Of a stretch of DNA of 47,886 nucleotides, positions 1,332 through 31,087 are shown one piece after another. The position numbers were made by a program, and so were the translations under genes. The DNA comes from a virus (Duplodnaviria > Heunggongvirae > Uroviricota > Caudoviricetes), in IMG/VR virus record IMGVR_UViG_2563366951_000006; one strand, written 5' to 3'. Position 1 is the first letter of the stretch, and each line of letters opens with the position of its first letter. Under the pieces are notes generated by a model. The model searched no databases. It had not been told where the DNA came from and worked only from the letters and a program-made list of their open reading frames with translations.

Positions 1332-1571
1332 ATGTTCGTTGAACTGGTTTATGACAAACGCAATGTAGAGGGGCTTGAAGGGGCCAGAGAAATTATTCTG
1401 GCCGAGCTGACGAAGCGGGTGCACCAGATTTTCCCTGATGCCGAGGTGAAAGTGAAGCCGATGCAGGCAAACGGCCTGAATAGCGATGCCAGTAAAAGCG
1501 ATCGGGAAAAGCTGAACCGCATGCTGGAGGAGATGTTTGAAGAGTCGGATCATTGGTTAAACAATATTTAA
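1332..1571 (+). CDS. DinI-like protein
   Basis: 79-aa ORF with the DinI-family pattern (EL..R....FPD.E..V, C-terminal acidic segment ending DHW). Confidence 0.65.
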   Translation: MFVELVYDKRNVEGLEGAREIILAELTKRVHQIFPDAEVKVKPMQANGLNSDASKSDREKLNRMLEEMFEESDHWLNNI

Positions 1572-1665
1572 ATTCAATCTGTTAACGGCTAAGGAATATT
1601 TTTAGGAATATTTTGTTGTCATTTTTGTTGTTGATGGTACTCTTATCATTATCATCAATAACAGA

Positions 1666-2286
1666 GTGCGAGTTATGTCCCTTATCTCTAAAGAAGAAGC
1701 ATTGCTGGAACTTGAACCCTATTTCCCTCTGTTGCGAAAAGCTGTACATGCTGCATGGAACTCTTGGGTTACGGGTCCAATAGCACCTCGCATGCAGCAC
1801 AAGCGCGTCCGTGCAAATCTCGTATGGAATGATTATTTTTTCGAGATGATAAAAGAACTTTCAACAGGTGAACACAAAGGCATTAGGTTTGCAAAAATAC
1901 CTTATAATCAAGGGTTTGCAGTTAATGACAGATTCTTCATTAAGTTTAAAAAGGCAGACTCCAACTTCCTTTCCTCCAACCTTCAGACTCAATCAGCTAT
2001 GAAATATCATGACCCAGAGATTGATATGTTTGGCGGAGAAGTTCGCTTAGAGTTGCTGTATGTTTTAGACGATGATGGGATCAACATTGACAAAATTGCA
2101 ATTGTTCAAAGAAAAGACAAATTTGTCGCTTGGGCAATAGATATTGAAGGCGATAATGTTGCTGAAATTCCTCATACATTTGAACCAAGCACAACCGAGA
2201 CAGCTAAAACTGTCGCGAAAAAAGTTATCAAACCTCGCAAACATGCAAAAGAAAACGTGGTAAACAAAGATGGCACAAATTCCTGA
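1666..2286 (+). CDS. Hypothetical protein (206 aa), upstream partner of the HTH-ImmA gene
   Basis: AT-rich ORF; alternative ATG at 1675; 3' end overlaps the next ORF by 17 bp, suggesting translational coupling; no family recognised. Confidence 0.55.
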   Translation: MRVMSLISKEEALLELEPYFPLLRKAVHAAWNSWVTGPIAPRMQHKRVRANLVWNDYFFEMIKELSTGEHKGIRFAKIPYNQGFAVNDRFFIKFKKADSNFLSSNLQTQSAMKYHDPEIDMFGGEVRLELLYVLDDDGINIDKIAIVQRKDKFVAWAIDIEGDNVAEIPHTFEPSTTETAKTVAKKVIKPRKHAKENVVNKDGTNS

Positions 2287-3355
2287 ATCTCTCTCTTTGA
2301 TTAGAAATGAGATGATCGAGCTTCGCCGCAGAATGCTTGGAATCAGCCAAAAAGTTTTATCAGAAAAAGTGGGAATGTCCCAAGGAACCCTTTCGAAGAT
2401 AGAACAGGGACTTAAAGCTGTAACACCAGAACAAGCTCAGAAACTTTCTGAGGCATTATCATGCCCACTAAGTTTTTTTACGATGTCAGAACGCTTATAC
2501 GGTGGGCCAATCAGCGCGGCTCCAATGTATAGAAAAAAAGCATCTGTGGGTATAAAGGTTTTAGATCGCCTCATAGCAGAGATTAATGTACGAATAGCTC
2601 ACATTAGAAAACTTCTTCAGTTCGTTGATTTTGAACCAGAGTTTGAATTACCTTCATATGATCCTGACGACTACAACGGTGATGCGACTGAAATTGCAAG
2701 AAATACGCGAAAAAGTTGGTATATGCCCGCAGGTCCGGTGAAAAACTTGATCGAGGTTCTTGAAAGAGCTGGATGCTTAATAATCGAGTGTGACATGGAT
2801 GACACTGGCTTATCTGGGGTTAGCTACAACCTTCCAGGATTACCACCGATTATTTTCATCAACAGAAATCAGCCCCTTGACAGATATCGTTTTACACTAG
2901 CGCACGAGCTTGGCCATTTAGTCATGCATAAATCGCCCAATCCAAACATGGAGAGCGAAGCTGATGCTTTCGCAGCAGAATTTTTAATGCCTGCACGTGA
3001 CATATCTCCCTATCTTCGTGATATGAGCATTGAAAAAGCTGCAACCTTGAAGCCTTACTGGAGAACCTCAATGGCCTCCGTAATTTTCAGAGCCAAAACT
3101 TTAGGATATTTAAATCAGGGACAAAATGAATATATCTGGCGTCAGATGTCTGCACGCGGATACAGACTCAATGAACCAGTACAATTATCTCCTGATAATG
3201 AAAAGCCAACATTGTTAAAAGAGATATTTGAACACGTCAAACAAGAGCTTGATTATGACGAAAGCGAATTATCGCAAGTATTCTCAATACATTATGATGA
3301 AATAGAACAACTTTACCCTATTAACAAAAAAACTGGCTTAAGATTAGTTAAATAG
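2270..3355 (+). CDS. XRE-family HTH fused to ImmA/IrrE-type zinc metallopeptidase (COG2856-like)
   Basis: N-terminal HTH (ISQKVLSEKVGMSQGTLSKIEQG); C-terminal HEXXH motif (LAHELGHLVMH) with downstream EADAFAAEFLMP. Confidence 0.8.
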   Translation: MAQIPESLSLIRNEMIELRRRMLGISQKVLSEKVGMSQGTLSKIEQGLKAVTPEQAQKLSEALSCPLSFFTMSERLYGGPISAAPMYRKKASVGIKVLDRLIAEINVRIAHIRKLLQFVDFEPEFELPSYDPDDYNGDATEIARNTRKSWYMPAGPVKNLIEVLERAGCLIIECDMDDTGLSGVSYNLPGLPPIIFINRNQPLDRYRFTLAHELGHLVMHKSPNPNMESEADAFAAEFLMPARDISPYLRDMSIEKAATLKPYWRTSMASVIFRAKTLGYLNQGQNEYIWRQMSARGYRLNEPVQLSPDNEKPTLLKEIFEHVKQELDYDESELSQVFSIHYDEIEQLYPINKKTGLRLVK

Positions 3356-3357
3356 AA

Positions 3358-3386
3358 CCAACCCGGCCACCGCGCCGGGTTTACTT
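3358..3386. terminator. Bidirectional terminator hairpin between convergent genes
   Basis: cccggc-caccgc-gccggg stem-loop followed by a T-rich run. Confidence 0.5.
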
Positions 3387-3389
3387 TGA

Positions 3390-3695
3390 TTATTTTTCCG
3401 GCATGTTAAGCATTTGACGCAATTTTTTATTAACTTCTTTCTTCCGTCGAGTAAACGCCTCCTCAGCATCAGCCTTTCGTTCCTTGTCTCTTAGCTTGGT
3501 CGGCTCAACTTCCACTGCTAACAAAGCAGCCTGACAATCTTCTTTCGTAAACAGATAGGGTGATTTTGGCCTGTCGCTTACCCGGTAGGCTTTGAGCCTG
3601 CCTTCAAGAACCCATTTAGTCACTGTGGCCGTCGAGATACCCAGCAATTCAGCAACTTCCTTTCTCGTCATTGTAAGTCTATCCATATCATTCAA
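3390..3695 (-). CDS. Excisionase/AlpA-type HTH DNA-binding protein
   Basis: LTMTRKEVAELLGISTATVTKWVLEGRLKAYRV matches the excisionase-family HTH pattern; basic C-terminal tail. Confidence 0.65.
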   Translation of the reverse strand: MNDMDRLTMTRKEVAELLGISTATVTKWVLEGRLKAYRVSDRPKSPYLFTKEDCQAALLAVEVEPTKLRDKERKADAEEAFTRRKKEVNKKLRQMLNMPEK

Positions 3696-3737: not shown

Positions 3738-4118
3738 TTATACCCCTTTAGATTTCCATGTTTTTATCTCAAACAAAACAGCGCAATCTCCTTCGTCATT
3801 CCAAACTGCAGAATTTACCCCCCAAAAAAGAGTAAACCTTTTCCCACCCTTGTTTCTGTCCGGTATTATATTTTTACCTGGCCGCGTATATAAAATAATT
3901 TCATCACCTTTTTTAGCATCATAAGAAGGCATCCAATAAGAATGCCTTAGCTTTGACGAAATATAACCATCATCTGTATAAGTTGTGTCCTGGAGCAGGT
4001 AATATTGCAATTTGCAATCTTCAATCACGTCCAAAACCACAAACTCTTCTTTCGCATCCCCATGATTATGGATACTTCTTATGCTTACTTTCATATTAAC
4101 ACCTCGCTTTTTAATCAA
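3738..4118 (-). CDS. Hypothetical protein (126 aa)
   Basis: AT-rich ORF upstream of and co-directional with the AlpA-like gene; no recognisable motif. Confidence 0.45.
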   Translation of the reverse strand: MIKKRGVNMKVSIRSIHNHGDAKEEFVVLDVIEDCKLQYYLLQDTTYTDDGYISSKLRHSYWMPSYDAKKGDEIILYTRPGKNIIPDRNKGGKRFTLFWGVNSAVWNDEGDCAVLFEIKTWKSKGV

Positions 4119-4173
4119 TCTTAGAGAGGTATTAGCTCTGAAACAACAAGGTTTTACGTGACTGTGGTCACGA

Positions 4174-4740
4174 CTAGGTAGTTTTATTAGCTGGAAACTT
4201 CTTATAAAGAGTGCATACCGCTACATCATAAATAATTGCCACCTGCTTCCTGTTCATGCCATTCGCAATCAGTCGGCCCGCCTGGTCCCATTGTTCTTGA
4301 GTAAGCTTCGGACGCCTGCCGCCTATCCGCCCTTTCTCCCGAGCTGCAGCCAGGCCTGCCCGGGTGCGCTCAACAATCAACTCTCTTTCCATTTCCGCCA
4401 GTGCTGACATGATGTGAAATATAAAACGCCCCATTGGGCTGGAAGTGTCGATGCTGTCAGTAAGGCTCTTGAAGTGAATGCCACGTTGTCGGAGTTCGTC
4501 CACCAGCAATACCAGGTTCCTCATGCTTCGCCCGAGGCGATCCAGCTTCCAAACAACCAGCGTATCCCCCTCCTTCAGCGTTCGCAGAAGCTTTTTAAGC
4601 GCTGGCCGGTTCGCTACCGTCCCGCTCATTTTTTCCTCAAAAACCTGTTCACATCCTGCGCGTTCGAGAGCTTGCCGCTGAAGATCAGTATTTTGGTCAT
4701 TTGTTGACACCCTTACATAGCCAATTTGCATATTTTTCAC
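4174..4740 (-). CDS. Serine DNA invertase, Gin/Pin/Hin/Cin family
   Basis: MQIGYVRVSTNDQNTDLQRQAL...VWKLDRLGRSM...YDVAVCTLYKK is near-collinear with Mu Gin; catalytic Ser in the VRVSTNDQ motif. Confidence 0.92.
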   Translation of the reverse strand: MKNMQIGYVRVSTNDQNTDLQRQALERAGCEQVFEEKMSGTVANRPALKKLLRTLKEGDTLVVWKLDRLGRSMRNLVLLVDELRQRGIHFKSLTDSIDTSSPMGRFIFHIMSALAEMERELIVERTRAGLAAAREKGRIGGRRPKLTQEQWDQAGRLIANGMNRKQVAIIYDVAVCTLYKKFPANKTT

Positions 4741-4797
4741 CCAATAAATTCTGCAAAAAAATCAGGTGAAGTTATCGGCCAGGCCGCTCAAGAGCAA

Positions 4798-4821
4798 TCT
4801 ATAAAACGTCGGTTTAGGAAG
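4798..4821. other. gix/hix-like recombination site (left boundary of invertible segment)
   Basis: tctataaaacgtcggtttaggaag; inverted copy of the site at 6347..6370; resembles Mu gix TTCCTGTAAACCGAGGTTTTGGATAA. Confidence 0.6.
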
Positions 4822-4861
4822 CAGCGCCACGAAGGACGTCGGAACGGCGGCCGGAAACGTC

Positions 4862-5602
4862 ATGCAAGTGGGAGCATTTGGGCTTGGAACTATCAACGGA
4901 GACGGCCCACTGTTGGACGCTATGGACGCATTTACACCGACCTGTTTCTCCTCCCATCAAAATGACGGGATGACCCAGCTTGGGTTAACTGCAAATACCG
5001 GTATTACGTCTATAGTCGTCAATCGGGGCAGCCGACCAACCCGTATTCATCAGGCCTACATTCTAAGGCGGACGTGGTTTTCGTATTACGGTGGTTCGTC
5101 CTGGTCATATCAGGAGGCTTACACCACGGGCAATACCACAAAGTCCAGCGATGGTACCCTGAAGGCTGCGTCTCCGGTTGCGCGCATAGTGACGAGTCGG
5201 GATGCATGCCAGCGCGCTGACGTAGCCGAAGATGGTTTCTCCTGGTGCGGCTGTGGGACAGCAAACGCAGAGGCGGAGGGCATAACCCTTTCTCGCCTTG
5301 AGGCGGGCGTTTACCTGCTGACAGGTGCAGCAGGACTGGCTTCAGAGGGATGGCAGCTACTGCCACCGATGGACCCTGGTGGAATGGGAGAACTTGGCGT
5401 GGTTGAAGCTGAGCAGACGGAAAGCGGAGGCCTGACAATCCGTCTTTTCAAGCAAAAATACATCCTGAGCGGTGAAGGTGAGATCATTAAAACCAAAGGT
5501 GAACCGATGGACGTGCCGGCGAACAGTTGGATCGATGTTCGCCTGGATATGCCATCTGATTCTCTGTTTAACCAGCGGATGAATCAGGAACTTCAGCCAT
5601 AG
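4862..5602 (+). CDS. Tail-fibre variable C-terminal cassette A (inside invertible segment, currently opposite to the tail operon)
   Basis: Frame is open from the gix site (NVGLGSSATKDVG...); shares motifs with cassette B (SDGTLKAASPV, DMPSDS.FNQR). Confidence 0.55.
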   Translation: MQVGAFGLGTINGDGPLLDAMDAFTPTCFSSHQNDGMTQLGLTANTGITSIVVNRGSRPTRIHQAYILRRTWFSYYGGSSWSYQEAYTTGNTTKSSDGTLKAASPVARIVTSRDACQRADVAEDGFSWCGCGTANAEAEGITLSRLEAGVYLLTGAAGLASEGWQLLPPMDPGGMGELGVVEAEQTESGGLTIRLFKQKYILSGEGEIIKTKGEPMDVPANSWIDVRLDMPSDSLFNQRMNQELQP

Positions 5603-6221
5603 CCTTGCGCTGATTCCAGATACTGTCCTGCGGCATCTGAACACGTACAGAGACAAATTGGTCAGAAGGGATGTCTATCGGCTCGCCATCGCTGACACCC
5701 TGTAGCTCGTTCCTGGCGAACTCTGGTGCTTCAGGATGTGTGCGGTGAAAGGTTTTCACTAACACCGATCCGTCAGCATGAACCTCATAATCCAGCCATA
5801 TCAGAGGCTGCTTGTTGCGGTCGGTGGGAATATCAAAACCGCCATCAATGCCGCCCCAGGCAGCGTCAGAGTTAAGCCCTTCACATCCTTCAATCAGATA
5901 TTCACCGATGGTCAGACGGGTTACGGTGCAGCCTTCAGATTCGTCATTAGTCTGGTATGCGCCATCTGTAAACACTTTGACCACAGGCGATGCTGCTTTA
6001 ATGCTGCCATCTGATGCAACTGTAGTGTTTGCAGTCGTGTATACCTTTTTCCAAGTGTATTGGCCTCCTTGATTGTGAGTAGTCTGAATATATGCTTTTC
6101 CATCATTAGACCAAACGAACCATGAAAAAGATGGGGCACCATCATACTGCAACTGCAGCCCGACTCCTCCACCTCCGGGGGAGTTGATCGTTGATGTTGT
6201 ATACCTACCAAATCCAAGCAC
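5568..6221 (-). CDS. Tail-fibre variable C-terminal cassette B (inside invertible segment, co-directional with the tail operon)
   Basis: GTG start at 6221; same frame stays open upstream through the gix site to 6371 (KVGLGDAATRGV...); homologous to cassette A. Confidence 0.55.
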   Translation of the reverse strand: MLGFGRYTTSTINSPGGGGVGLQLQYDGAPSFSWFVWSNDGKAYIQTTHNQGGQYTWKKVYTTANTTVASDGSIKAASPVVKVFTDGAYQTNDESEGCTVTRLTIGEYLIEGCEGLNSDAAWGGIDGGFDIPTDRNKQPLIWLDYEVHADGSVLVKTFHRTHPEAPEFARNELQGVSDGEPIDIPSDQFVSVRVQMPQDSIWNQRKAMAEVPDSSAG

Positions 6222-6346
6222 ACTCGTATCTGAAAAGTTTTCAATATGTCGCGGATTTCCCAGTCCAATAGCTCCTACAGTAGGGAGAGTATTGTGGCCA
6301 ATGCCCGGAGAGATTTTATCGCTGGTTACTCCCCTTGTGGCCGCAT

Positions 6347-6370
6347 CTCCTAAACCGACCTTTAAAATAT
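6347..6370. other. gix/hix-like recombination site (right boundary of invertible segment)
   Basis: ctcctaaaccgacctttaaaatat; shares cctaaaccgac with the reverse complement of the site at 4798..4821. Confidence 0.6.
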
Positions 6371-6410
6371 TTCACGATCCGATATGCTAGGCCGGTTCCT
6401 CTTCTGCATT

Positions 6411-7547
6411 TCACCCTTTGCTATTGTTTAAATTTTCTCCACTGCTCATTTCGTCGATTTGGAGTTTCAACCCTTTTACAGCAGCAATCAGATAGCCGAT
6501 CAGCCCCATATAATCGGCAACAAGATAATCTGTTGCTTCATCATGAATAACCAGGTCGGGAATCACTAAATCGAGATCTTGCGCAAGCGCGCCAGCGGTT
6601 AATCTCTTTGAATCTGCATTCTTATAGCGGAACGTGTAACCATCAAGCGCGGCTATCTTTTCCAGAGCCTCCGCAGGCTCGATAATGTTCACTTCCTCTT
6701 TCGCGTTCCAGTCTGACGTTAGAGTAACGCCGTTCGCCTGAACTGCACCCTTCGCGTTTATCGTCCCGTTACGAGTGTTTATGAACACCGCAGGTTTCCC
6801 GGCAACCACGCCATTTACTGGCTTGTTGTATGCAGTACAGAAGCCGATTCCGTACCAACTGACAATGTTGATGTTGGACATTGCTTCGAATGAGGCTGTG
6901 TCAGTACCTGCTTCAATAGCCCCGAACCCTCCAATTGCTACCCCGGATGATGTATCACTTGCCGCTGCAGGGATACGGATAGCAGCCGATGCAAACAAAG
7001 ATTCCCCATTCACCATGAATCCACTGACAATGACATTATTTGAATCCTGAGTAGCCAAGCTTCCTAAACCGAGGTTTTTGCGAGCGTCTTCTGCCTTCGT
7101 TGCCCCGGTCCCGCCGTCAGCGATTGCAAGCGCACCATTGCTCCCTTTCTGCGCAAGTTTACCGATGCCTGGGATGGTTACGGCGGTGCCGTTGATGGTA
7201 ACTGTGATGCTTTGGTTTGCTGAGGTGGTGGCGAACGTCTCCCACGCGCCAATATTCTCGTCATATTCTTTGATGAGCTGCGACATTGCCTGGGCCAGTC
7301 CGTCGACGGAGATAATGTCTGACACCAGAATGGCGTATTTCTGGCCGCTCAGCGCCGGAGAAGCTGCAGGCGTAATCGTCATTGACGTGGCGCTATTCAC
7401 GGATGAAATCTGGAACATCTGAACCGGGTTAGACATGACAATAATCGTCTGGCCAGCGCGAACCTGGCTGGCCGGTGCAGTCCAGTTTGTACCGGAGCCG
7501 GTTGCGGTATTTCCGTTAATAGAGATAGTTCCGGTGCTATAAATCAT
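6411..7547 (-). CDS. Tail fibre protein with C-terminal intramolecular chaperone (peptidase S74-like) domain
   Basis: C-terminus SDWNAKEEVNIIEPAEALEKIAALDGYTFRYKN...YMGLIGYLIAAVKGL matches the auto-cleaving chaperone domain of phage fibres; RBS aggag upstream. Confidence 0.8.
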   Translation of the reverse strand: MIYSTGTISINGNTATGSGTNWTAPASQVRAGQTIIVMSNPVQMFQISSVNSATSMTITPAASPALSGQKYAILVSDIISVDGLAQAMSQLIKEYDENIGAWETFATTSANQSITVTINGTAVTIPGIGKLAQKGSNGALAIADGGTGATKAEDARKNLGLGSLATQDSNNVIVSGFMVNGESLFASAAIRIPAAASDTSSGVAIGGFGAIEAGTDTASFEAMSNINIVSWYGIGFCTAYNKPVNGVVAGKPAVFINTRNGTINAKGAVQANGVTLTSDWNAKEEVNIIEPAEALEKIAALDGYTFRYKNADSKRLTAGALAQDLDLVIPDLVIHDEATDYLVADYMGLIGYLIAAVKGLKLQIDEMSSGENLNNSKG

Positions 7548-7624
7548 AACAACTCCTAAATTTAGACAACATGAAGCCCGGAGAGGTATATAACCCTCAC
7601 CAGAAATAATTTCTGAATTGGTTT

Positions 7625-7971
7625 TTAATACATGTTGGGCAACGCCAGTGTTGGCATAGCTATAGTTGTATCAAATGCCATTGACCACCCACCCAAATAA
7701 TAATTGCCGACTACTTTATTCCTTTCTGCTCTGACATTCCCACCTGTCATTACAATTCCTTTATACCTAATATTTCCGTAACCACCAACGTGTCGACAGT
7801 TAGCCCCGGTATAAACAATCTGGCAAAATTCATCACCAATATTCAGGTTCGCATTGGCGATATTTATTGTCCCATCAAAAATGAATGGCTTCGTGCAAGT
7901 AAGAAGACGTTTGCGTTGACGATTGGTTTATTCAATCCATCAACTAAAATACCATGTAAACGAATTGCCAT
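7625..7971 (-). pseudogene. Side-tail-fibre (Stf)-like N-terminal fragment, apparently interrupted
   Basis: ATG at 7971 encodes MAIRLHGILVDGLNKPIVNANVFL, which resembles the lambda Stf N-terminus as I recall it (MAVKISGVLKDGTGKPVQNCTIQL); stop after 35 codons, open frame continues in another phase to 7625. Confidence 0.4.
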
Positions 7972-8052
7972 AACATTTCCCACTTTATTTTACTTACTCA
8001 ACACAACAAGTATATTAAAATTGAACCTTGTCAACAACACAAAGGAGTCCCA

Positions 8053-8283
8053 ATGAAACTCGCTCTAATTATGCTGCCATTATGTCTGTCCCTCACTGCA
8101 TGTGGTAGTGGCCTGAATACCGGTAAACCGAATTCCGGCGTTATCCCAAAACCCTTGGATTGGGATAACGGTTCTTTAATTTATGATACCGAAAAGCTTC
8201 CAATGACTGGGCAATGGTGCCATGAGATTGCTCACGAATACCGAAGAATTGGAAGCCCTTCAAACTGTGTGATTGATTATTGA
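8053..8283 (+). CDS. Small lipoprotein moron, possible Cor-like superinfection-exclusion protein
   Basis: 76 aa; signal peptide with lipobox LTAC; opposite strand to the tail genes, immediately downstream of J. Confidence 0.5.
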   Translation: MKLALIMLPLCLSLTACGSGLNTGKPNSGVIPKPLDWDNGSLIYDTEKLPMTGQWCHEIAHEYRRIGSPSNCVIDY

Positions 8284-8284
8284 A

Positions 8285-8312
8285 AATTAACCCCTCAAAC
8301 GAGGGTTAATTA
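8285..8312. terminator. Hairpin between convergent J and lipoprotein genes
   Basis: attaaccc-ctcaaacga-gggttaat, 8-bp perfect stem. Confidence 0.5.
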
Positions 8313-8316
8313 TTTA

Positions 8317-11300
8317 TTACGACCAACTACCAGTTCCGCGAGTCATTAATATTACAGACGGGCGCAAGTAGCTCCCATAGACGTTCGTATACTCCTCCTC
8401 AACGCTTATTGTTACGCTCGACGCTGTCTTTCCTTTCACTGCTAAAGGTATGGTTACATCCATGCCAGGACCATTAGCAGCTCGCTCAATGCTCCTTGTA
8501 ATTGATGTCCCCCCTATGTTAGCAGTCACAATTATACGACTTGCCTGATTTGATGTATATGCAGTTAAACTATAACTTAATAGCAACACAAAGTCTTTAG
8601 ATAATGCTGAACCGGATGAGTCTTTGAAAGTTTTTGTCCAGGTTCTTGAACTTGTAGTTTGTGTGTTTGGTATTGCAGACTCAGCAATGACACACATATT
8701 CGCAACATCACCCACAAAACTGGTAGCTTCCACATTCCCTTTGAATTTACCGCTTGTTGCTTGGATCTCACCAGTAAAGCTACCGCCACTAGCATATACT
8801 ACACCTCTGACGGTCACATTGTTGAATTCAGCATCTCCAGCTTTATTCAACTTCCAACCAGCAGAACCAGCTGCATAGTTGTTGGACTGGATATAGTTGC
8901 CGATTTTGGCGTTCTCAATGGTGCCGTCCTGGATGAAGCTGGCCCGGATGAATGTCTGCCCGTTCTGGATCACGAACGGCAAAGCTACGCTATTTCCGGC
9001 TGCCGTGGTGACGGCGAAGCGGTCAGCCAGGAAGATAACCTGCGACTGCATCCCGGACGGCGTATTCTCAACGCCGATCCCCATCCCCGCAGCGTAATAC
9101 TGCCCGTTGCTGGAGACACCAACCTTGATGTTGTACATCGCGCTGAGTTCGCCATTAACGTTGGCTATAGCCTGAGCGTTAGTGGTGATGGCGGAGGTAT
9201 GCCCGTTCACGGTCGCCGTGATGCTGTCTATCTGCGTGGCGGTGGCCTGCTGATAGTCGGAGAGCGTCTGATTCAGGCTGTTGATGGATGCCTTGTTGCC
9301 GTTGACATCCGTCTGCAGGCTCAGCAGAGAGCGCGCCGTTGCCTCCTTCTCGTTAACGATTACCTCATCAATACGATCCAGCTGCGCACTGTTACCGGCG
9401 ACCGTCGCGGAAAGCCTTTTGCGTGTGGCCACCTGCGCCAGCCCGTTCTGGATAATGGCAATGGCTGAGTTCTTAACCCCGCCCGTCATGCCGTCCATCG
9501 ACACAGAAATCTCGTCGATCTTCACTTCGGCCTGAGCCAGCCCGTCAGCGTTCTCCAGGATGTCTTTCGCCTGCTGCTCGAGTTCGTCGGCATGGTTTTT
9601 AATTTCGTCAGCCATGCCAGCAATTTTTTCATTGCTGTCCACAGCGTTCTCGATCATGTCTTTGAACGTATCGGAGCCTTTCATGTCCTCCAGGATCACA
9701 TCTGTGATGTCGGAAACATCGATGCTGGCCTGTCCTCGCACCCATTCTGTGTACCCTGATTCGTTGCCGCTGCGGTCCACCAGCTGAGCGCGGTACCAGA
9801 AAATCTGCCCAGCCTTGAGGCCCATCTGCTGATATTTGCGCTGCGGATAAGGCACATCGGCCAGCAGCATCGCATCGTCCTCGGTTCCGGTCAGGCTGTA
9901 CTGAATTTCCGTCTTCAGCGTGTCGTCGGTATTCGCCGGGAATCCCCAGTTCAGCTCGATGCCGAAATCCACATTTTCAGAAGCGATGAAGCCAACCGGC
10001 TTCGGTGGATTGCCCACTTTACCCGTAAGATTTACTTCTGGTGATGTCGCCCACACTGATGAAACGTCGCTGGCGTTCACCGCCCTGACGCGGACCAGAT
10101 AGCGACCCGAGTAGATACCCTGCACTTCAAAGCCGAGAGAAGACGTTCGTGGCACACTAATCCAGTTGCCGCTGTCACGCCGCCATTCCGCCTCGTACGC
10201 AACTGCACCCTGAACAGCATCCCAGGCAACGCGCATGGTGGTAATCGCAATGTTCTGGTTAACCGTAGAGTAACTGTCTACGACGATATTTCCTGGGGGA
10301 GCCTGAACCCCTGGCGGAATGACACTGACTGGCCGCTCGTCCAGTCTTGCGCCGGTATCAACAGCGGAATAGATATCAGGGTTGTAAGTCGTCCCGGTGA
10401 CCTCGAAAGTACCGTCGTTGTTGTCCCGCGTTCCCGTAACACGGAAAAGCGCTATAAACAGATCGTCAGAGTCCACACCCCAGTTACATTCAGCCTCCGG
10501 CGTTTCGCTGTAGGGTGTGGTGACAGTGACTGTGTTTCCGTTAACGGCCTGGACGGTTCTGGCCTGAGCTGTGCCTGACGGAAGATTCAAAAACAGCCTG
10601 TTACCGGCTTTCACATCAGCAGCGCGATCGAGGGTTATGTTGCGGCCGTTAACCGCACTCACCCTGCCGCCGATAGTTCTTCCGGCCAGCTCGTTAGCAG
10701 CCACGCCGATCACCTCACCAACAGGGGGGACGTCCATGCCTGTGCTGAAGGTCACCACCTCGCCGATACCGTTGGTAAGCAGCGCCCAGCGCCCCCGCCG
10801 GTTTGCCTCTGACTGCCTGGTGCAGCCGATCGCAGTCATTTCGAGCTGACGATAATCGAAGCGCATGGCCAGATCGCTATCGTAAACAGGCTCAGGCGTA
10901 TCTTTGTAGTGGTTGGCAGGGTCTGACCAGTTCACCAGCGCGGCAGTGTTTCGGGTGGTTTCACTCGGGTCCGCAAAGGTAAATTTACCCTCAACTACGC
11001 TGGCGTGGTTATAGATATGCCACACATCGCGGGGCATATCAGCCAGGACATACATCTTATTGTCACCCCAGTACGTCATGCCGCGAAATATACCCGCCAG
11101 ATCACGAAGTACGGTCCAGGCGTCATTACGGTCCTGGATATAAACGTTGCAACGAAAACGCGGCTCCGTCCCGCTGCCGCCCTTGCCGTCTGGTACCAGC
11201 TGATCGCAATACTGGGCGATGCGATAAAGTTCCCACTTGTCTATCTGAGTCGCATCGATTCTTTGCCCCAGCCCGAAACGCTCGTTCAGAATGATGTCGT

Positions 11301-12171
11301 AATAAATCCAGGCTGGGTTATCCGTCCATGCCCATTTAAACACACCTTCCCATGTACCAGAGTAAGTGCGGGTTTCAGGATCGTAGGTATCAGGTACACG
11401 GATGATTCTCCCCTTCGGATTGCACACAACCTGAGGAATGCCATTAGGGAACTGCTTTGCGTCAAACTCTACATACAGCAGCGCTGTGTTAACGTAGCGA
11501 AGTTTGGCGTCAATAATTTCAGTTACAGCTACAACGCGCATGGTGTCCACGATATTCACGCTCGTGGAATCCGGCGTGATTCTGCGAACCCGTAACTGCC
11601 AGCCAGTCGAGGATTTTGGAAGGTTAACGCGGTGACTGCGCTCATAAAGCGACGTGGTTTTGTCATCGACAGCACCGTTAACCACCGTTTCATACGGCCC
11701 GCCATCTACCGACAGATCGATAGCATACTCGACGCGGGTGCCGACTTTGTCGCCGTTGTTTTTCTGGAGCAAGAGAGTTGGCCATCCCAGGCGAATTCGC
11801 AGCGCAGAGAGCTGCGTGTTGGATACCGCGCGCACGTACGGCACAGCCTGTTTCAGCTCGTATGAAACCTGAAGTTCGTTTTCAATGCCGGGGAAGCCCT
11901 GAATGTAGTCCTGGTCCTGAGTACCGGAACGGAACTCATATTTCACATTATTGAAGTTATAACTTCCGTCGGCGTTCTGAAGAGGCGTGTACGAAGATGA
12001 GTCACCAAGAAAAATGTTTTTACCATCAAGCCCGCCAGCGAACTCACCCTCTCCAAGCGCAATCAGCACCTTTGCCCTTGCAATGGACTGAATGCTGTCC
12101 GGTGCTTCAACGGGTGTTCGGGTCTGATTGCTGCCACCTTTACCGCGGCCTTTGATGATCGTCGTCGTCAT
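8317..12171 (-). CDS. Host specificity / central tail fibre protein (lambda J family)
   Basis: 1284 aa; conserved lambda J blocks (NTALLYVEFDAKQF, YCDQLVPDGKGGSGTEPRF). Confidence 0.95.
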   Translation of the reverse strand: MTTTIIKGRGKGGSNQTRTPVEAPDSIQSIARAKVLIALGEGEFAGGLDGKNIFLGDSSSYTPLQNADGSYNFNNVKYEFRSGTQDQDYIQGFPGIENELQVSYELKQAVPYVRAVSNTQLSALRIRLGWPTLLLQKNNGDKVGTRVEYAIDLSVDGGPYETVVNGAVDDKTTSLYERSHRVNLPKSSTGWQLRVRRITPDSTSVNIVDTMRVVAVTEIIDAKLRYVNTALLYVEFDAKQFPNGIPQVVCNPKGRIIRVPDTYDPETRTYSGTWEGVFKWAWTDNPAWIYYDIILNERFGLGQRIDATQIDKWELYRIAQYCDQLVPDGKGGSGTEPRFRCNVYIQDRNDAWTVLRDLAGIFRGMTYWGDNKMYVLADMPRDVWHIYNHASVVEGKFTFADPSETTRNTAALVNWSDPANHYKDTPEPVYDSDLAMRFDYRQLEMTAIGCTRQSEANRRGRWALLTNGIGEVVTFSTGMDVPPVGEVIGVAANELAGRTIGGRVSAVNGRNITLDRAADVKAGNRLFLNLPSGTAQARTVQAVNGNTVTVTTPYSETPEAECNWGVDSDDLFIALFRVTGTRDNNDGTFEVTGTTYNPDIYSAVDTGARLDERPVSVIPPGVQAPPGNIVVDSYSTVNQNIAITTMRVAWDAVQGAVAYEAEWRRDSGNWISVPRTSSLGFEVQGIYSGRYLVRVRAVNASDVSSVWATSPEVNLTGKVGNPPKPVGFIASENVDFGIELNWGFPANTDDTLKTEIQYSLTGTEDDAMLLADVPYPQRKYQQMGLKAGQIFWYRAQLVDRSGNESGYTEWVRGQASIDVSDITDVILEDMKGSDTFKDMIENAVDSNEKIAGMADEIKNHADELEQQAKDILENADGLAQAEVKIDEISVSMDGMTGGVKNSAIAIIQNGLAQVATRKRLSATVAGNSAQLDRIDEVIVNEKEATARSLLSLQTDVNGNKASINSLNQTLSDYQQATATQIDSITATVNGHTSAITTNAQAIANVNGELSAMYNIKVGVSSNGQYYAAGMGIGVENTPSGMQSQVIFLADRFAVTTAAGNSVALPFVIQNGQTFIRASFIQDGTIENAKIGNYIQSNNYAAGSAGWKLNKAGDAEFNNVTVRGVVYASGGSFTGEIQATSGKFKGNVEATSFVGDVANMCVIAESAIPNTQTTSSRTWTKTFKDSSGSALSKDFVLLLSYSLTAYTSNQASRIIVTANIGGTSITRSIERAANGPGMDVTIPLAVKGKTASSVTISVEEEYTNVYGSYLRPSVILMTRGTGSWS

Positions 12172-30778: not shown

Positions 30779-30853
<75 letters not shown>

Positions 30854-30856
30854 ATA

Positions 30857-30932
<76 letters not shown>

Positions 30933-30934
30933 AG

Positions 30935-31008
30935 TGGTCCGCCACCGGAGCCTCGAACCCCGTACCACAACACCTGGGTTGCCGCTCTTCCCGATGAGCT
31001 AGTGGCGG
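30935..31008 (-). tRNA. tRNA-like gene with non-canonical anticodon arm (anticodon unassigned)
   Basis: Perfect acceptor (CCGCCAC/GTGGCGG), D and T arms; best anticodon-arm fold is GCAAC/GTTGT around a 6-nt loop CCAGGT. Confidence 0.5.
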
Positions 31009-31010
31009 TC

Positions 31011-31087
31011 TGGTGGCCCTTGCTGGACTTGAACCAGCGACCGGGCGATTATGAGTCGCACGCTCTAACCAACTGAGCTAAAGGGCC
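31011..31087 (-). tRNA. tRNA with CAT anticodon, Ile2-like (lysidine) or Met
   Basis: Manual fold: anticodon loop CTCATAA; resembles enterobacterial ileX as I recall it. Confidence 0.75.

Follow-up and report, generated by a model that had tools for sequence, protein, structure and literature searches.

Here we examine a tail-fibre locus beside a serine DNA invertase gene, at positions 4,174 to 7,547 of the IMG/VR virus record IMGVR_UViG_2563366951_000006 (47,886 nucleotides, or 47.9 kilobases, kb; this whole stretch is called the window below). The fibre gene is the side tail fibre (stf) gene of an HK97-like prophage located at the Escherichia coli ssrA gene. We will show that the locus contains three crossover sites in a common codon phase, that all four arrangements (isomers) predicted from them are present in public assemblies with precise and reciprocal junctions, and that the alternative modules form in-frame fusions with the fibre gene. 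We are highly confident that the locus is a three-site Gin-family inversion switch, which offers the Stf protein three alternative C-terminal tips. An earlier interpretation made from the letters alone (called the sequence-only reading below) had described a two-site segment, cut off from the upstream fibre gene by in-frame stops. With the third site in place this apparent anomaly is removed, the "cut-off" cassette being an ordinary silent copy in a three-site switch.

Three copies of the exact 11-mer TCGGTTTAGGA are found in the window, at 4809, 6348 and 7062, all of them within 2.3 kb beside the invertase gene; with one mismatch allowed, the number of matches to this 11-mer expected by chance over the whole window is 0.8. 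The crossover sites that contain these copies are listed below. Each sequence is written in the direction of the module that the site precedes, and isomer I is the arrangement of the window.

7059..7084, minus strand: crossover site 1, within the stf open reading frame (ORF); CTCGCAAAAACC TC GGTTTAGGAAGC; codons R-K-N-L-G-L-G-S; core 7062-7072.
6345..6370, minus strand: crossover site 2, internal; ATATTTTAAAGG TC GGTTTAGGAGAT; direct to site 1 in isomer I; weak left half-site.
4797..4822, plus strand: crossover site 3, invertase-proximal; ATCTATAAAACG TC GGTTTAGGAAGC; opposite in orientation to sites 1 and 2.

A repeat search relates these sites to one another. The longest inverted repeat (I1, 34 nucleotides, nt; arms 4803-4836 / 7045-7078) pairs site 1 with site 3, a shorter one (I2, arms 4796-4819 / 6348-6371) is the pair on which the sequence-only reading was built, and a direct repeat (D4, 6348-6363 / 7062-7077) connects sites 2 and 1. 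The two inverted gix-like sites of that reading are real and do have a common core, namely TCGGTTTAGGA, but the third site at 7059-7084, inside the fibre gene of 378 amino acids (aa), had been overlooked.

All three sites align with the gix sites of phage Mu (gixL/gixR, TTATCCAAAACC TC GGTTTACAGGAA) around the same central TC. The best match is site 1, which has 14 contiguous identical nt, AAAACCTCGGTTTA, in common with gixL/gixR, the central TC included. The right half-sites, GGTTTAGGA(A/G), resemble the TCCTAAACC half of P1 cixL; at sites 2 and 3 the left half is degenerate. By these alignments, the sites are elements of 26 base pairs (bp) with two imperfect half-sites around a 2-bp core, with their recombination partners inverted. 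In the fibre gene, site 1 falls at codon ~159 (…ARKNLGLGSLATQ…), where it encodes KNLGLG, and its codon phase is the same as that of sites 2 and 3. G-L-G is read by all three sites in the module frame. The VGLG that had been noticed across the two previously described sites is indeed there: the frames, open as far back as 4805 and 6371, encode NVGLG and KVGLG, respectively.

The coding parts between and around the sites are the following.

7073..7547, minus strand: constant N-terminal part of the stf gene, about 158-160 aa, HK97 Stf-like.
6411..7070, minus strand: module A, currently joined; T4 gp36-like repeat (PF03903, 1e-6) and Peptidase_S74 intramolecular chaperone (PF13884, 2e-10), both from Pfam.
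6371..6410, minus strand: spacer of 40 nt from the module A stop to site 2; holds an in-phase TGA and TAG and travels with module A.
5568..6356, minus strand: silent module B, a Phage_tail_C_2 tip (PF25670, 2e-60); open frame 6371-5568.
4811..5602, plus strand: silent module C, a Phage_tail_C_2 tip (PF25670, 9e-30); open frame 4805-5602; a TAA closes the frame upstream of site 3.

Modules B and C are convergent with an overlap of 35 nt, and they are 28% identical; PF25670 is found in both. The earlier description of two convergent homologous fibre cassettes (4862-5602 on the plus strand, 5568-6221 on the minus strand) was correct. The same is true for the stops on which the idea of a severed cassette was based. 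TGA 6372-6374, TAG 6387-6389 and TGA 6411-6413 are in one phase on the minus strand, and the immediate contexts are TGA-AAT-ATT-TTA-AAG-GTC-GGT… at site 2 and TAA-AAC-GTC-GGT… at site 3. As these stops are located just 5' of sites 2 and 3, modules that are not joined to the constant part stay closed. Closure of this kind at the 5' end is normal for a silent cassette. In other prophages the same modules are open. A fusion of the constant part to module B gives a complete Stf ORF of 421 aa in four loci (L005/L010/L011/L023), a fusion to module C gives one of 422 aa in four more (L004/L006/L008/L009), and in all of these module A is silent and lies inverted beside the invertase gene. No tfa-type gene and no further ORF with a family match was found between the sites in the Pfam and ORF survey.

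Inversion takes place only between oppositely oriented sites, and three sites of the present orientation therefore give exactly four isomers. Sister loci were found by look-up of contigs encoding the exact invertase or the exact C-cassette ORF in NCBI, ENA and Logan assemblies, and isomers were called in 14 sampled assemblies by sorting every junction according to its left flank (L1/L2/L3) and right flank (RA/RB/RC). The window itself corresponds to locus L007 (GCA_000408365.1, scaffold KE137028.1), to which it is identical over 6 kb. In the following list, "const" stands for the constant part and the arrowheads give the direction of each module.

Isomer I: const-A>, B>, <C; the window/L007, L014 and L019, with the partial contigs L021 and L022 consistent with I.
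Isomer II: const-A>, C>, <B; L012/L018.
Isomer III: const-B>, <C, <A; L005, L010, L011 and L023.
Isomer IV: const-C>, <B, <A; L004, L006, L008 and L009.

All four predicted isomers are thus seen in independent E. coli assemblies of one ssrA prophage, and each is interconvertible with two of the other three. In BLAST comparisons with the window, the block rearrangements break at the three sites only, and the module DNA is 99-100% identical. Every isomer III or IV locus has a breakpoint at site 1; site 2 is one in L005/L010/L011/L012, and site 3 in the rearrangements of L004-L012. In L012/L018 window positions 6363..4804 are inverted, which is the 1.55-kb segment in its other orientation, and the predicted invertibility of this segment is therefore borne out. 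At every junction the left flank is fixed: L1 remains on the constant part, L2 on the 3' end of module A and L3 on the invertase side. It is the right flanks (RA, RB, RC) that change places, and they do so inside the 11-nt TCGGTTTAGGA. Read from the aligned sequences, the pattern is that of precise, reciprocal and conservative recombination. No deletion product lacking module A was found in the 14 sampled assemblies.

The DNA around the switch is practically the same in the different isomers. The flanks of L005 (III), L009 (IV) and L012 (II) have 0 mismatches in 6.9 kb, and L014 (I), compared with L005, has no difference over 4961 nt to one side and three over 3541 nt to the other. With only 0-3 differences in flanks of about 7 kb or more, all four isomers must fall within one lineage, over a time too short for point mutations to accumulate. 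Two short-read contigs end in the crossover cores: L013 stops exactly at the left half of site 3, and L030 (949 bp, Enterobacteriaceae bacterium G50) consists of a fibre module with site cores at both ends. Assemblers give such ends when both orientations occur among the reads, and they suggest, if indirectly, that both were present in the sequenced cultures.

We now consider the enzyme, for which two features are relevant.

4174..4731, minus strand: serine DNA invertase, 185 aa from ATG 4731; GTG 4740 is an upstream alternative start (ORF 4174-4740).
4642..4713, minus strand: putative recombinational enhancer (Fis-binding), within the invertase gene (ORF nt 19-90); homologous to the P1 annotation.

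The invertase has a Resolvase catalytic domain (PF00239, 2e-50) followed by a C-terminal helix-turn-helix domain (HTH_7, PF02796, 5e-15). Over its full length it can be aligned with the Mu Gin structures 3uj3/4m6f (E=1e-88), with the catalytic Ser9 motif VRVSTNDQ conserved, and its identity is 74% with Mu Gin, 75% with P1 Cin, 77% with e14 Pin and 92% with Fin of phage LLS. By these matches the enzyme of the locus belongs to the Gin/Hin/Cin/Pin (Din) family of serine invertases, in agreement with the Gin-like invertase of the sequence-only reading. A protein look-up of the form starting at GTG 4740 returned no record; the exact protein is recorded from ATG 4731 only, which is therefore the likely true start. 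The invertase has Met where the crystallised Gin sequences carry Val. We take the latter to be M114V hyperactive mutants, in which case the Met would presumably represent the wild-type, Fis-dependent state. We also considered whether invertase calls of 151 aa in L014 and L022 are truncations that lock isomer I, but rejected this; they are gene-calling artefacts, because the DNA is 100% identical to that of the window.

The P1 record annotates nt 19-90 of cin as the enhancer of Cin-mediated inversion, and window positions 4642-4713 are homologous to it. In this region the synonymous-codon identity is 0.62, compared to 0.42 in the rest of the gene (7 invertase genes, which are non-independent sequences). 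The P1 homology and the synonymous conservation are together suggestive of an enhancer inside the invertase gene, but do not prove it.

On the basis of these results, the following mechanism can be proposed. The constant N-terminus (7547->7073) ends at site 1, and at the head of each of modules A, B and C, in one common codon phase, stands the right half of a site. Any two inverted sites would be recombined by the invertase, with a swap of their right halves at the central TC. Starting from isomer I, inversion between sites 2 and 3 leads to isomer II and exchanges the waiting cassettes B and C only. This step is phenotypically silent, because neither cassette gets joined to a start codon, but it sets which cassette the next large inversion brings to the constant part. 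Inversion between sites 1 and 3 converts I into IV (const-C>, <B, <A), and a further inversion between the constant site and the internal site converts IV into III (const-B>, <C, <A). Of the three modules, just the one attached to the constant part would be translated. As in the Gin/Hin family, the enzyme would presumably bind the sites as dimers and exchange strands at the central TC. Fis, bound to the enhancer inside the invertase gene, would be required, and would limit the enzyme to inversion, with no deletion between the direct sites 1 and 2. We infer from knowledge of the family that it is the invertase of the locus that would catalyse these reactions.

It is important to point out that some observations weigh against this assignment. 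At site 2, the left half TTTTAAAGG matches a gix half-site poorly. The isomers come from different isolates, and inversion in the window strain itself is predicted from the comparison of assemblies. The support for the enhancer consists of homology to the P1 annotation and of modestly raised synonymous conservation among non-independent sequences. No invertase promoter stood out in a promoter and terminator scan of positions 4000-7800, where the counts did not exceed those of shuffled sequence and no signal was usefully placed. Finally, that a change of tip would lead to a change of host range is carried over from other members of the family.

Some of these points would also fit a situation in which the switch is real in the lineage but frozen in the window strain, the invertase being unexpressed in the lysogen or the prophage being defective. 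The strain is known from its assembly alone, the scan gave no clear invertase promoter, and isomer I is the commonest one (5 of the 14 sampled assemblies). On the other hand, the invertase ORF, the enhancer-homologous region and the three sites are intact, and they are identical to those of loci in other isomers. The invertase, its 5'/enhancer region and the left flank of site 3 are 100% identical to loci in other isomers, and the left half of site 1 is also present in L011, L006 and L008, which are isomer III or IV loci. The window carries thus the same working parts as the rearranged loci. The set of prophage ORFs is in addition full, with head, tail, lysis and integrase-sized ORFs. We therefore consider a frozen switch to be unlikely.

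The explanation offered by the sequence-only reading was that the two-site segment is orphaned from the fibre gene, either as a relic of module replacement or with cassettes expressed from internal starts such as GTG 6221. It has in its favour that, in the orientation of the window, stops just upstream of sites 2 and 3 close both cassette frames, and that inversion between these two sites alone, as in isomers I and II, never joins a cassette to a start codon. The explanation is nevertheless refuted by the existence of isomers III and IV. A third site lies in phase within the fibre gene, and the cassettes, which had been held not to be fusable to the upstream fibre, are found in full-length ORFs with the constant part in near-identical sister prophages with identical flanks. 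With the in-phase site and the in-frame fusions, internal starts are not needed. Nor can the cassettes be relics, as B and C are 99.9% conserved across the isomers, unlike the pattern of a decaying relic, and are fused in the sister prophages. We attach very little weight to an orphaned segment. That the isomers result from RecA-dependent recombination at short repeats, or from assembly error, is scarcely credible: comparison across assemblies does leave the enzyme unnamed, but the exact identity between sites is 11 nt (about 20-34 nt with mismatches), which is very short for RecA and below assembler k-mers, every junction is at a gix-like core beside a Gin homologue, and the same four arrangements occur in NCBI, ENA and Logan assemblies as well as in the finished ABWA45 genome.

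The preferred assignment, a three-site inversion switch, can now be compared with established systems. It is a known kind of host-range switch, with a logic that has already been published for a P2-like prophage of enteropathogenic E. coli (EPEC) and, more elaborately, for p15B Min. The Min system of p15B (Sandmeier, Iida, Arber) reportedly employs a Din-family serine invertase and more than two sites in tail-fibre DNA to place alternative C-terminal segments onto a constant N-terminus. It is said to have six sites and many more isomers. More than two sites are thus common to both systems, with three sites and four isomers in the present case.

The comparison with the Mu G, P1 C and e14 P segments, already envisaged in the sequence-only reading, holds for the conserved gix core and for the location of one site inside the fibre ORF. 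In all of them this site is at N-L-G-L, about 160-170 codons in, as here; gixL of Mu is at codon ~169 of S (…IQNLGLQET…), compared to ~159 for site 1. Here as in Mu, about 70-80 nt separate the proximal site from the invertase gene. However, Mu G, P1 C and e14 P have two sites, one segment and two states, whereas the present locus has three sites with two nested or overlapping inversions, three tips and four isomers. Moreover, the variable parts in Mu, P1 and e14 each have their own assembly gene (U/U', Tfa), and there is none here. Multiple inversions that choose one C-terminus of a receptor-recognising protein are also found in the shufflon of R64/IncI plasmids. In the R64 shufflon, the tyrosine recombinase Rci acts on sfx repeats and the target is the pilus adhesin PilV. 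With a serine invertase and a phage fibre as the target, the present locus is not an R64-type shufflon.

In the P2-like prophage of EPEC E2348/69, three partially homologous inverted repeats give four variants and three C-termini, each variant converts into two others, and coexistence of variants was shown by polymerase chain reaction (PCR) (Goldberg et al. 2014, PMC4272514). The logic of one invertase, three repeats, four variants and three fibre C-termini is common to the two loci. The carrier is in that case a P2-like myovirus prophage, while here it is the side tail fibre of an HK97-like siphovirus at ssrA. Further differences are that the modules contain here no tail-fibre assembly genes, that one tip is of the self-chaperoning S74 type, and that the variants are known here from comparing isolates, not from PCR in one culture. 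More generally, tail-fibre genes have been found to be among the families enriched for programmed inversions (Milman et al. 2023). A literature search gave no paper on the switch of this ssrA prophage. Its mildly unusual features are the carrier, i.e. an HK97-like siphovirus side fibre, the mixed tip architectures, and the segments without chaperone genes.

Closest to the locus in sequence are the phages LLS and mEpX1, which have an HK97-like Stf N-terminus, a left repeat at the same NLGLG and a right repeat beside the invertase, but differ in that two sites and two tips are found. The LLS record annotates IR-L inside stf and IR-R beside the "Fin" invertase; switching of tips in LLS has been proposed from sequence only. 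The three-site layout is present in the finished genome of E. coli ABWA45 (L002), where module A is the same and its partner modules are others. The IMG/VR contigs L027 and L029 have a third module set, in two different isomers, and L028 has yet another set. The arrangement of a stop followed by a site recurs in these related phages, and the internal left half-site (a stop, then (N/K)ILKVGLG) is conserved at all four of these loci. A scan of genome contigs for the internal-site signature gave two matches, the fibre-module contig L030 mentioned above and L031, from a metagenome-assembled genome of Chitinophagaceae. The latter was discarded as probably a chance match to a 20-mer, since its frame closes at once and ~2 chance matches are estimated in 596 Gb.

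Site 1 is exactly the point (query 2961-2967 = 7060-7066) at which the window loses its nucleotide homology to the stf genes of many lambdoid phages, among them HK97, HK140, mEpX2, HK106 and HK75. HK97, which has no invertase, carries in its stf gene (L032, codon ~158-166) an e14 pix-like AAACC TT GGTTTGGGAGAAGG (AAACCTTGGTTTGGGAGAAGG) at the same NLGLG joint. From the end of homology at site 1 and the pix-like sequence in HK97, the crossover site thus seems to double as an evolutionary joint at which fibre tips are exchanged.

These considerations can be put together in a tentative proposal, which as a whole we regard as possible but somewhat doubtful. A conserved side-fibre switch with three tips and without separate chaperone genes may be common to HK97-like prophages of Enterobacteriaceae, mixing one S74 self-cleaving tip with two Phage_tail_C_2 tips. 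A deliberately weak internal site, together with the two states that express A (I and II), could bias the population to tip A and make the next tip dependent on history, and the gix-like NLGLG joint, retained also in phages such as HK97 that have no invertase, would double as an evolutionary joint for tip swapping.

Public assemblies of a single prophage lineage document every one of the four predicted isomers, which makes the locus a clean natural example. For annotators, it means that short "tail fiber domain-containing" ORFs beside a recombinase gene represent alternative C-terminal ends of the fibre gene next to them, and that a single assembly is insufficient to read the host range of such prophages. 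For phage engineering, the NLGLG/gix joint is a natural splice point for swapping Stf tips.

Finally, we describe the surroundings of the switch. The window starts in E. coli smpB and ssrA, with bases 1-1060 being 100% identical to many E. coli chromosomes and the transfer-messenger RNA gene at 698-1060. Downstream of ssrA is a prophage of ~41 kb that is HK97/HK022-like. It carries head genes and a tRNA cluster, a gene for a J-type tip protein at 8317-12171 (minus strand), one ORF of tape-measure size and, near 41-42 kb, one of integrase size.

The region next to the stf gene, at 7560-12171, has in the window a J of 1284 aa and a lipoprotein-like ORF of 76 aa (8053-8283). Most of the sister prophages (L004-L012) have instead a J of 1195 aa, followed by genes of 100, 224 and 77 aa (HK022 gp24/gp25/Cor-like). 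As this J/lipoprotein region differs among the sisters, the DNA upstream of stf is mosaic, although the switch itself is nearly identical.

On the other side, a moron-like block at 1332-3695, kept in all sister prophages, separates ssrA from the invertase gene. It contains a DinI-family gene (1332-1571), an ORF of 206 aa that overlaps a gene of 361 aa with HTH_3 and Peptidase_M78 domains (ImmA/IrrE-type; 1666-3355), and an HTH_17 gene (3390-3695, minus strand), after which comes an ORF of 118/126 aa (3738-4118, minus strand). In L023 (positions 1-371; assembly ERR11807275), the ssrA side runs into a reverse-transcriptase gene (RVT_1, weak match) and not into smpB. The tRNA cluster, at 30779-31087 on the minus strand, comprises four genes (Gly-tcc, Thr-tgt, Met-cat), one of which was given an abnormal two-base anticodon by ARAGORN.

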